From Nitrospirota bacterium (GTDB lineage: Bacteria > Nitrospirota > Thermodesulfovibrionia > Thermodesulfovibrionales > JdFR-86), in NCBI GenBank assembly GCA_963721805.1, contig CAVRJY010000001.1:288001-352000 (forward strand): 64,000 nt of DNA. Direction: 5' to 3'. Position 1 is the stretch's first letter, and every line of letters begins with the position of its first letter. The position numbers are program-made. Positions 33,301 through 36,300 of this stretch are shown here, piece by piece.

Positions 33301-36300
33301 AGAGACAGGGAGCGCAACACAGAGCGCACCCGAAGGGCCGCGGCCTACGTCGGAGGTCCCGACAGACGAGCCGCAGATCAGCACCGCGACCCTTCGGTTT
33401 TTTATTGTCCTGAGAGCCCCATTCAAAAAGATAGTGAGAGCCCGGTGGCTGCCGTCTATTCGCCGCCCTGTGCGTTGTTATAGGCCCTGCCCACGCGGGC
33501 GACGATTGCTGCGAGCCTCCTGTCGAGCTTCTCGCCGGGGCTGCCGAGGATCTTGCGCACCGCTCGGTTGCTCAGCCCGTACTTCGCTGCCAGCCTGCGC
33601 GGGCACATCCCGCCGCGGTGGTCCTTGCGGATGGCGGCATTGCGCGCTTCGCGAAACAGGCCCTCGAGGCTGTTGATGTAGATCATCGTGCCCTTTAAGG
33701 CCTTGGCGATCCTGAGCGCGGCCTCCGGCCCCGCGATCTCCGCGATCCTTCCCACGTCCCCGGAGAACAGCCCGCTCCCGCCGGCCCGCCGCCCGGTTTC
33801 GTTCGATTCGCGATGCGCCAATGTGGTTGTCCGTTTCTCTATCATTTTCCTAACAATAGTTAATGGTTATACGAAGAAATAATCGGTCGGGCACTCAAGC
33901 GCCCTGGCGAGCTTGGCCAGGGTGTTTGCGCGCGGCTCTTTCTTTCCCTTCTCCAAGGCCGATATAGAGACCTGGCTGAGGCCGATTTCCTTGGAAAGGC
34001 GCACCTGCGTCTTTCCCAACCGCCTTCGCCTCACCGACATCCTCTCGGGGCTGAATTGCATGTCCGCACCTCCTTTCGCTAACTATTGTTAGTTTATACC
34101 TCTCATTTTACTACTGTCAAGGGTAATACTTAACTTTAGTTAGTAAAAAGGGCTTGACAATTGCTTTTCTATAAACTATAGTTAATGCATGGTGAAGATA
34201 AAGGCCACCGACATGAAGCGGATCGGCGGATTCATTAAGAGAAAGAGGATAGAGAAAAACCTCACCGCGCGCAGGCTGGCCGAACTCGTCGGGGTCTCGG
34301 ACGCCCATATCATCTATATAGAGAAGGGCCAGCGCGGGGCCTCCTTCGACATCATCGTAAACATACTCTCAGCGCTGGGCGAGACGGTCGAGGGCATGCT
34401 CGCCGAGATCAGGCGCAGCCGCTCCAACGTCGAGCCGGCGCGGATGGCCTCCCCGGCGCCGATCCCCGTGGTCTCATGGGTGACGGCCGGTAAGTGGCGC
34501 GAGGTCTGCGACGTCTTCGAGCCCGGCGACTCGGACGAGTGGATAGAGAGCGACGTCCGGGGCAGAAACGTCTTCGCGCTTCGCGTGACGGGGGATTCGA
34601 TGGACCCGGAGTTCAAGGACGGCGAGATCATCGTCGTGAACCCTCATATCGAGGCCACGCCGAACGACTATGTCGTGGTCAAAAACCCGAGGGGCGAGGC
34701 CACCTTCAAGCAGCTCAAGAAATACGGCCAGAGGTGGGTCCTGCACCCCTTAAACCCCAGGTACGAGGACGAGGAGGTCAGGAAGGGCGACTTCGCGATC
34801 ATAGGCAAGGTCGTCAAAAAAGAGAAACGGTATTAGAAAGGCCAGGCCCGGGCGTTTGTAGGGCGCGCAGCCCGTATGGTAAAATTATCTTTGCCCTAGG
34901 GCGGTTAGCTCAGTTGGGAGAGCGCGGCGTTCGCAACGCCGAGGTCGAGGGTTCGACCCCCTTACCGTCCACCATAAAAATCCCCCTGATCCCAAACAGA
35001 TCAGGGGGATTCTTTTTTGTCCGAACCTGAGCGTGTCAGGAGGGAGCCCATCGGGGCGGGACTTGGAGATCCAGCCCCGATGGGTGGATACTATGTTACT
35101 GCCTGACGCCTACCATAAGCCTGATCGTGCCGTCGGTGGCCCCGTTGTCCATGGACATGAAAACCTGCGCGTCGGGGCTGAGCATGCCGCTGTCGCCCGT
35201 GGACATCGTCAGCTGTCCGCCGGTGCCCATCGTGTAGGTACCGCCGCTGGCGTATGGCTGCCCGTCGCTGCTGTAGAGGTCCTGGGCAGAGAAATTGCCG
35301 CTGCCGTCGAAGGTCATCGCGCTGACGCCGGTCCATGCGAGGTCTCCGGTGATCGCCGTCTGCGCGACCGTATAGTCGCCGGCCATCGATCCAGCATTAA
35401 GCCCGCTGGAGGTCGAGACGCCGATGGCCATGCCGGTCTTCCGGCCTGAGTTGCCGACCTGCACGAGGCTCAGAACGGCGCCGTCGGACCTCGCGAAGCC
35501 CTGCAGCTGCATGCCGTTGACCTTCATCGTAACCTTGCCGTTGTTCGCGACCTGGTACCTGCCGGACTTGGCCATGCCGTTGCCCGGTGCGCCTTCGCCG
35601 CCGTCGGTGTTGCCTCCGGTGGTGCCAGCGTTACGGTAGGACATCCTGCCGTTGCCCTTAAACTGGATGTTCACGAGGAACGGGGTCGAGGTGACCTGGC
35701 CTGTGCCGGTGGCCGTCATCGCCACGCCGCCTATGACATACGTTCCCTTAAGCTTGGACCTGCCCATGTGGCCGGAGGCCCTGAACCCGAGGCCGATGCT
35801 CAGGGCGTTGTCCCCGGCCGTCGAGGTGTCGGCCCATGCCATGGCGTTGCCGTCAGCTGACTGCGCGGACATGCCGCCGGTTGTTCCAAAGGACATAAGC
35901 CCTTCGGCGGTCGTGGTGACCATGCCGGTCATCCTGTTGCCCATGCCCATGGATGAGCCCGAGCCCATGGGGTTGCCGCTGAAGTTGCCCTGGCTGTCGA
36001 TGCCGAGGTTGTACATCTGGTCCCAGAAGGGCTGGCCGGATGAACGCCAGCCGAACATCCCGAAGACGTAGTTGCCGGCAGGACCCGTTCCGCCTGTGCC
36101 GCCTGTGCCTCCGGCCAGGGTCGTCGCCGTGGCGGTATTGCTCGCGGCCGATACGTTGCCGGCCGCGTCGGCTGCCTCGACGGTGTAGTTATAGGTGGTC
36201 GTAGGCGCGATCGCCATATCCGTGTAGCTGGTCATGGCCGTAGAGCCTATCTGCGTGCCGTCGCGGAAGACCTTGTATCCGGTCACGCCAACGTTATCGG

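Follow-up and report, generated by a model that had tools for sequence, protein, structure and literature searches.

A CI-Mor phage switch in a Nitrospirota genome and its probable link to a Mu-like, GTA-type cluster and dispersed terS/pac-like modules

Here we present a lambda-like switch from a Nitrospirota genome, in which a CI repressor stands divergent from a cro-like gene and a Mu Mor/C-type activator, and whose control sequences recur at dozens of other loci. We consider it probable that a domesticated, DNA-damage-inducible cascade, passing from CI to Mor, runs a Mu-like cluster of the GTA type together with dozens of dispersed modules made of a promoter, a terS-like gene and a pac-like site. 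The window analysed is a stretch of 64,000 nucleotides, and coordinates without a contig name refer to it. The genome studied is designated G000 and the ten other genomes of its family G001 to G010; 20 further genomes come from the same order, Thermodesulfovibrionales.

The switch and its flanks comprise the following features.

33030..33205, plus strand: copy (~175 bp) of the "head" hairpin repeat in which the leader modules also end; DNA fold z -4.2
33456..33845, minus strand: mor, Mor/C-family activator of 129 aa; PF08765 at 33 bits (cut-off 24.9), phrog_836 late activator
33851..33862: operator O4, exact TAAC-N4-GTTA, between the cro stop and the mor start
33867..34061, minus strand: cro-like HTH_3 protein of 64 aa
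34080..34091: operator O3, exact TAAC-N4-GTTA, in the start region of the early promoter
34091..34120, minus strand: early (cro-mor) promoter, TTGACA-18-TAAACT
34131..34142: operator O2, exact TAAC-N4-GTTA, between the back-to-back -35 hexamers
34154..34182, plus strand: cI promoter, TTGACA-17-TATAGT, 6 nt ahead of the first ATG
34173..34184: operator O1, the near-site AAACTATAGTTA, covering the cI -10
34189..34836, plus strand: cI, repressor with HTH_3 and S24 peptidase domains; A100-G101, S137 and K174 invariant
34899..34974, plus strand: tRNA-Ala gene on the right flank of cI

The switch is real: an S24-type CI gene lies divergent from cro and a Mor/C activator gene, and the Pfam and phrog matches bear out the survey's finding in both arrangement and position. 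CI combines an N-terminal Cro/C1 HTH and an S24 domain with the Ala-Gly site and Ser/Lys dyad of lambdoid repressors, and the PF08765 score places Mor among the Mor/C activators. The dN/dS estimates are 0.26 for Mor and 0.21 for CI, within a range of 0.17-0.26 across CI, Cro, Mor, capsid and TerL in which many pairs are saturated. No integrase was found near the tRNA-Ala gene, and an Rfam scan of the switch region returned no family. Facing the 3' end of mor, at 33266-33410 on the plus strand, a strong promoter (TTGACA-17-TG-TAAGAT) is followed by a structured stretch of ~110 nt that closes in a U-run (RNA fold z -2.9); this element has no Rfam match and a single copy in the genome. Elsewhere in the window, a homoserine O-succinyltransferase gene (PF04204, 32111-33017) is split across two reading frames by a frameshift in either the gene or the assembly, and a c-di-GMP-I riboswitch (37459-37553, minus strand) lies between two duplicated genes for Fn3/Ig-like secreted proteins.

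The window holds three exact TAAC-N4-GTTA sites (33851, 34080 and 34131) against 0.15 expected, all in the control region as had been reported; the near-site at 34173-34184 had been missed. Judged by sequence, several operators overlap the divergent promoters, as in lambdoid switches, and the cI transcript would be leaderless. The predicted CI operator is a 16-bp element, ACTAACTATAGTTAGT. CI itself was found in eight of the ten family genomes at 51-67% identity and in none of the 20 other order genomes (E<=1e-30), and Mor adjoins it in all eight, which agrees with the earlier count of Mor-CI pairs. The O1 sequence is exact in six of these eight relatives and variant in G004 and G009, while an equivalent of O4 with at most one mismatch occupies the same place in G001, G003, G005, G006 and G008. 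An earlier statement that the operator is absent from G002, G003, G004 and G009 holds for the strict WWWW spacer only; with up to one mismatch, each of the eight switches has at least one operator. The switch lies directly beside the virion cluster in G005 and G008, again as claimed, and in both genomes the early operon is directed toward the lysis-head-tail cluster that comes next. Six of the eight relatives have an additional gene, X (145-167 aa; phrog_27552, with a DUF7173/Gam-like lead), between cro and mor, which is absent from G000.

CI, rather than Cro, is likely to be the protein that binds these sites, because three genomes that lack cro in the switch keep the operators and because operator and CI recognition helix co-vary. 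The switches of G004, G005 and G009 lack cro and leave no room for it, and genome-wide searches for cro in these three returned only generic HTH matches (E at least 2e-5; controls 2e-15 in G001 and 8e-22 in G003). The CI helix residues G35, S37, A39, H40, Y43, E45 and R49 are invariant across eight sequences, as are the Ala-Gly site and the Ser/Lys dyad. Upstream of CI homologs, AAC-N4-GTT was present at 9 of 10 loci with a Tyr-type helix and at 0 of 28 without, in a sample of 38 of the 160 fetched loci that includes kin and hence is not fully independent. The survey had left Cro as a possible binder, and O4 does lie directly after cro, which also encodes an HTH_3 protein; still, the retained sites and the co-variation make it very improbable that Cro, LexA or another host factor is responsible. 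No TAAC-N4-GTTA site lies upstream of lexA in G000, as noted earlier, or of recA, so that a LexA/SOS regulon was rejected, and the strict palindrome stays at control level in the 20 order genomes without this CI. Five CI homologs from outside the family have the same operator (L132-L135, L145); four have a cro-like neighbour, and none has a Mor match within 4 kb.

Genome-wide, G000 contains 41 TAAC-N4-GTTA sites against 5.4 expected, whereas spacers of 0-3 and 5-12 give 5-12 sites each. The excess reported before (40 sites, 28 in leaders) is thus reproduced with slightly higher counts: type-A tails account for 30 sites, the switch and a triple repeat for 3 each, and of the remaining 5, which lie elsewhere, 2 are inside genes. 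The leaders consist of three nested parts, a head (about 200 copies), a mid (54) and a tail (37). The head is a hairpin arranged in convergent pairs around low-GC DNA; set against the definition of REPIN/RAYT systems, it has the hairpin and the paired layout, and on the RAYT side, where a single-copy gene would be expected, the search gave only six IS200-type Y1 copies of equal score, of which two lie in type-A tails. The type-A tail is an array of three to four operator-like positions, and with 30 of 37 tails carrying the exact palindrome it does close most type-A leaders, as the survey had said.

An operator matrix of 16 bp, built from 28 sites in the relatives' switches alone, agrees. It finds 36 sites at 14 bits or more in G000, compared with 1-2 in three shuffles, namely 24 in type-A tails, 4 in the switch, 3 in the repeat and 5 others, with concordant spacer and flank preferences. 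Because a matrix from relatives only recovers 24 type-A leaders, we take it as confirmed at the level of the motif that leader palindrome and switch operator are the same. Type-A tails also align to the O2-O1 segment of the switch without its -35 (median score 32 against 22 shuffled), a score inflated in part by the operators common to both. They are ~69% identical to each other (median), the operator columns being the best conserved, and a tail-like stretch occurs upstream of the G006 cluster (E 1e-6); the tails may be inherited relics. A BLAST search of the whole leader against 30 relatives gave no match, a misleading null given that profile and pattern searches show the same layout with other sequences. 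An operator-like site of 15.5 bits also lies at C2:334256.

What the leaders control is a separate matter. Pfam matches were obtained for 17 of 25 hand-picked cargo proteins, one an IS transposase, and the cargo is rich in defence/TA families (MmeI, methyltransferases, KAP NTPase, SIR2, HEPN, HigBA-like and DUF4160/DUF2442 proteins). This content would suit a DNA-damage-inducible defence regulon in which CI represses the cargo through the leader palindrome, as would a cargo side of lower GC, seen at 50 of 53 modules, and the 22 of 34 first cargo genes that read away from the leader. We nevertheless hold such repression to be improbable. At the 35 type-A leaders the first cargo gene is sense in 22 cases, antisense in 12 and absent in 1, as read from the ORF listing (the gene caller missed AT-rich cargo), and the 12 convergent genes run up to the operator, several stopping within 0-50 bp of it. 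No sigma-70 promoter at a fixed position was found in the tails, the best pair recurring in 4 of 30 at most, and the promoters of type-B leaders and of the relatives face away from the cargo. With 12 of 34 first genes convergent and no fixed promoter, repression of cargo by CI is not supported. On their layout the leaders are not cargo promoters; they are better read as copies of the control regions of the switch and of the cluster, directed from the cargo toward a TerS-like/pac-like module. The survey's prediction that one repressor links the cluster and the cassettes therefore keeps its shared motif and loses its cargo repression.

The second control region is a late promoter of the Mor/C type. 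In seven of nine cluster 5' regions a 12-bp dyad is followed, after 2 bp, by a poor -35 hexamer and, 17-19 bp further on, by a -10, which puts the dyad near -43.5 if +1 is assumed at the ATG. The same strict geometry, with an exact box-to-(-10) spacing, recurs in 12 type-B copies in G000; it was not matched at the cluster promoters of G002 and G004. In the accessible parts of two sources the Mu C site is likewise centred at -43.5 (PMC2582627) and located upstream of a non-optimal -35 (10.1101/2025.05.02.651988). The pattern GGAAC-N2-GTTCC occurs at 50 sites in G000, against 0-4 for other spacers, and the G000 box, GGAACYRGTTCC, at 48. These 48 sites group into 21 arrays, of which 18 belong to type-B leaders, 2 to the triple repeat and one to the cluster promoter. 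Type-B late promoters are directed away from the cargo and into mid. At C1:664183 the promoter leads into an intact gene T (127 aa) whose 3' end overlaps mid, and at C1:1455947 into a broken T with the same overlap. The triple repeat itself (~192 bp, C1:962500-963200) combines Mor-type boxes with a near-perfect CI operator, its three TAAC-N4-GTTA sites lying at 962.7-963.1 kb, within a cassette that carries a Ser/Thr kinase and an IS481-type element; an element of this type sits beside the Mor-box array in at least nine type-B leaders, for example at C1:963225-964259.

In relatives the layout seen in G000 recurs, with 3-50 copies of the respective genome's late or early promoter. Matches to the own box numbered 40 in G001, 51 in G003 (42 loci), 12 in G006, 3 in G008, 2 each in G002 and G007 and 0 in G010, with only the cluster matching in G005 and reversed patterns giving 0-3; G002 and G009 were left out of the own-box-type searches. 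At 26 of the 42 promoter loci of G003 the end of mid lies 174-512 bp downstream, and at none in the opposite geometry; the mid-end pattern matched 40 times in G003 and 41 in G004. Copies of T in G004 stand under three promoter types: the dyad type; the early promoter with CI operator, dispersed in eight copies of which three are at T copies; and a second box type, whose box directly follows a second mor gene. In G006, T has a cluster-type promoter with five operators, and the modules of G001, about 40 in number, have a different repeat core. No clean sorting of Mor recognition helices by box type was seen. In several genera the switch thus appears to have both of its outputs wired to modules, and the regulatory link is wider than first claimed, taking in Mor-type sites as well and relatives too.

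The virion cluster, composed of Mu-like head, siphovirus-tail and lysis genes, lies 175 kb from the switch in G000. Its genomic make-up is that of a GTA: structural genes without replication genes, kept across the clade (TerL in nine of ten family genomes) under purifying selection. No MuA or MuB genes were seen among the cluster genes, and PF09299 matched none of five genomes in a search whose positive control gave no match either. The 82-aa gene before terL has no HTH match. No CI operator was found at the G000 cluster promoter, so that control of the cluster would have to pass through Mor. Adjacency in two of eight relatives, purifying selection and the Mor/C-type late promoter support the earlier suggestion that the switch is the regulator of this distant cluster. 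The first late gene (C1:131600-131829) encodes a conserved small Cys-rich peptide (about 75 aa) that opens the cluster in nine 5' regions, and in G001 (C21; L044:660) a second late promoter lies within the cluster, before the portal gene, reminiscent of the multiple late promoters of Mu. At C1:138420-140924 a Mu gp37-like tail terminator is fused to an N-terminal extension of ~690 aa; G005 has a separate 149-aa gene instead of the fusion. A separate low-GC integrative region (C2:300000-337000) encodes tyrosine recombinases and excisionase-like HTHs, together with an HTH protein of 124 aa that resembles TerS on visual inspection. Contigs from two DNA sequencing runs, compared with one locus (L022), were short and mixed.

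Gene T was found in five of ten relatives, with one weak match in addition (G002), and not in G001, G005, G008 or G009. It is TerS-like by the architecture of its predicted fold and by the synteny of its homologs. The model (pLDDT 85.7) comprises an HTH (residues 6-44) and a long hairpin of helices (48-104), which together correspond to the N-terminal two-thirds of the TerS architecture outlined in the accessible part of PMC6854486. Its distant homologs, and only these, are encoded upstream of TerL: they precede phrog_2 TerL in 2 of 11 viral loci and Walker-motif proteins of TerL type in 7 more, the 11 including two duplicate pairs. The C-terminus of T, usually the TerL-binding part, is unconserved and modelled at low confidence. 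PHROG TerS families gave weak matches (best 9 of 88 members), and fold searches yielded nothing more specific than HTHs or hairpins (best Z 8.4; Foldseek E at least 0.017). The close T alignment and query P0150 found no relatives among viral contigs, nor did query P0063 among GenBank phages; searches of Pfam, PHROG and PDB gave no match for three TerL-like phage proteins, whose hhalign comparison with the cluster TerL was not significant. The mid contains iteron-like TGAAC/GTTCGGATG repeats and an A-tract. In P22 and SPP1, pac sites lie in or near terS. The accessible part of PMC12946183 also describes a possible pac site near a terminase gene. The most likely reading is that T resembles a small terminase and that mid resembles a packaging start.

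In the cascade that we propose, CI would bind ACTAACTATAGTTAGT at O1-O4, holding the early cro-(X)-mor operon off and limiting its own promoter. DNA damage and RecA-stimulated self-cleavage, which the intact Ala-Gly site and Ser/Lys dyad lead us to infer, would lift this repression. Mor would then bind the 12-bp dyad of the late promoters and switch on the distant head, tail and lysis genes. About 54 dispersed modules in G000 would carry copies of the control regions, as the CI-operator array in type A and the late promoter in type B, in the order cargo, control region, T, mid, head. These modules would simultaneously be released by CI or transcribed through Mor, supplying T, licensing mid as a start site, or both. 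One switch would in this way reach cluster and modules, addressing the modules rather than the cargo genes.

How far this arrangement still serves packaging is less certain. Tentatively, we picture a GTA with programmed start sites, in which the CI-Mor switch drives both particles and chromosomal, genome-matched promoter-terS-pac modules, so that packaging and exchange would be aimed at defence/TA loci upon DNA damage. Packaging in pac systems and in lateral transduction runs downstream, according to the accessible part of PMC12829572; since the promoters point away from the cargo, adjacent cargo would miss the first headful. The modules could instead be selfish hitch-hikers or relics, mini-satellites (promoter, terS and pac) that formerly took advantage of the particles and multiplied through recombination between repeats; on this view most G000 sites, above all type A, are now inactive. 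We hold this to be less likely than not, though worth serious consideration: T is intact once and broken once in the G000 modules and otherwise lost, genera differ in copy number, from 1 to about 50, and IS481-type and IS200 insertions occur in leaders, but the operators remain the best-conserved columns of otherwise diverged tails and the spacing of the 12 late-promoter copies is exact. Such an origin would leave the regulatory link intact and change only the beneficiary. A further reading, that mid is a replication origin or recombination site bound by T and activated by transcription in the manner of run-off replication, is unlikely. Its iteron-like repeats and A-tract, and fold searches that fail to single out TerS, would fit, yet homologs of T stand upstream of TerL in phage contigs and the modules showed no gene for a primase, helicase or recombinase. 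The modules were also considered as PICI-type satellites and rejected: their ORF lists contain no integrase or replication genes of their own, and the tyrosine recombinases lie elsewhere.

These findings describe a clade-wide domesticated particle locus whose regulatory code, comprising operator, activator box and promoter geometry, is fully readable, with 20-55 control-region copies per genome beside low-GC defence cargo, and they bear on how scattered defence cassettes move. The code predicts exact positions of read ends in virion sequencing. If the interpretation is true, it would provide a GTA candidate in the Nitrospirota and possibly a targeted, inducible route for the exchange of defence genes. 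We found no description of such a system in the literature, mainly in openly readable main texts. The parts are of known kinds; what is new is that both control regions have been copied throughout the genome, and in a genome-matched form, into terS/pac-like modules.

In lambda, a repressor with HTH and S24 domains is divergent from a small HTH protein, with several operators over back-to-back promoters. The present switch shares this divergent arrangement, the multiple operators and a probably leaderless cI; unlike in lambda, no replication or integration genes follow, the early operon consists only of cro-(X)-mor, cro is dispensable, and the switch is maintained across genera under purifying selection. 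Mu is repressed by c/Ner, whereas here Mor is coupled to an S24 CI and no transposase was seen. With the Mor/C system, as far as the accessible parts of PMC2582627 and 10.1101/2025.05.02.651988 describe it, the switch shares a PF08765 activator, a dyad upstream of a poor -35 near -43.5, and promoters before lysis genes and, in G001, before portal; it differs in having two to four boxes in tandem with a 13-14 bp period and dozens of promoter copies outside the cluster.

PBSX of Bacillus subtilis is a domesticated, mitomycin-inducible phage that packages host DNA and is controlled by an Xre repressor followed by the late activator Xpf, according to the accessible part of PMC8347963. Domesticated phage genes under a repressor and then a late activator are common to both, in our case as predicted from sequence; PBSX has one locus, a sigma-type activator and random packaging, and the same part of that source describes no dispersed regulated modules. 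RcGTA and other GTAs, in the accessible parts of PMC6854486, PMC7947584 and PMC11841831, are likewise multi-locus, with a head-tail cluster without replication genes, a short tape-measure-like gene, a Phage-tail_3 protein and, in RcGTA, a TerS encoded by a short gene before TerL without an HTH match. They are reported there without discrete packaging start sites (PMC6854486, PMC11841831) and with random packaging (PMC7947584), whereas our system combines a Mu-type head with CI/Mor control of the phage type; its TerS-like gene is separate and encodes an HTH, and its candidate start sites are repeated. In packaging logic, putative in our case, there is a likeness to PICI/SaPI elements, in which, as the accessible part of PMC12829572 describes, an accessory TerS and pac redirect the helper terminase and defence genes are moved; by comparison, the modules described here are only 0.3-0.6 kb long, occupy dozens of sites, have neither integrase nor replicon, and would depend on a helper that has itself been domesticated.
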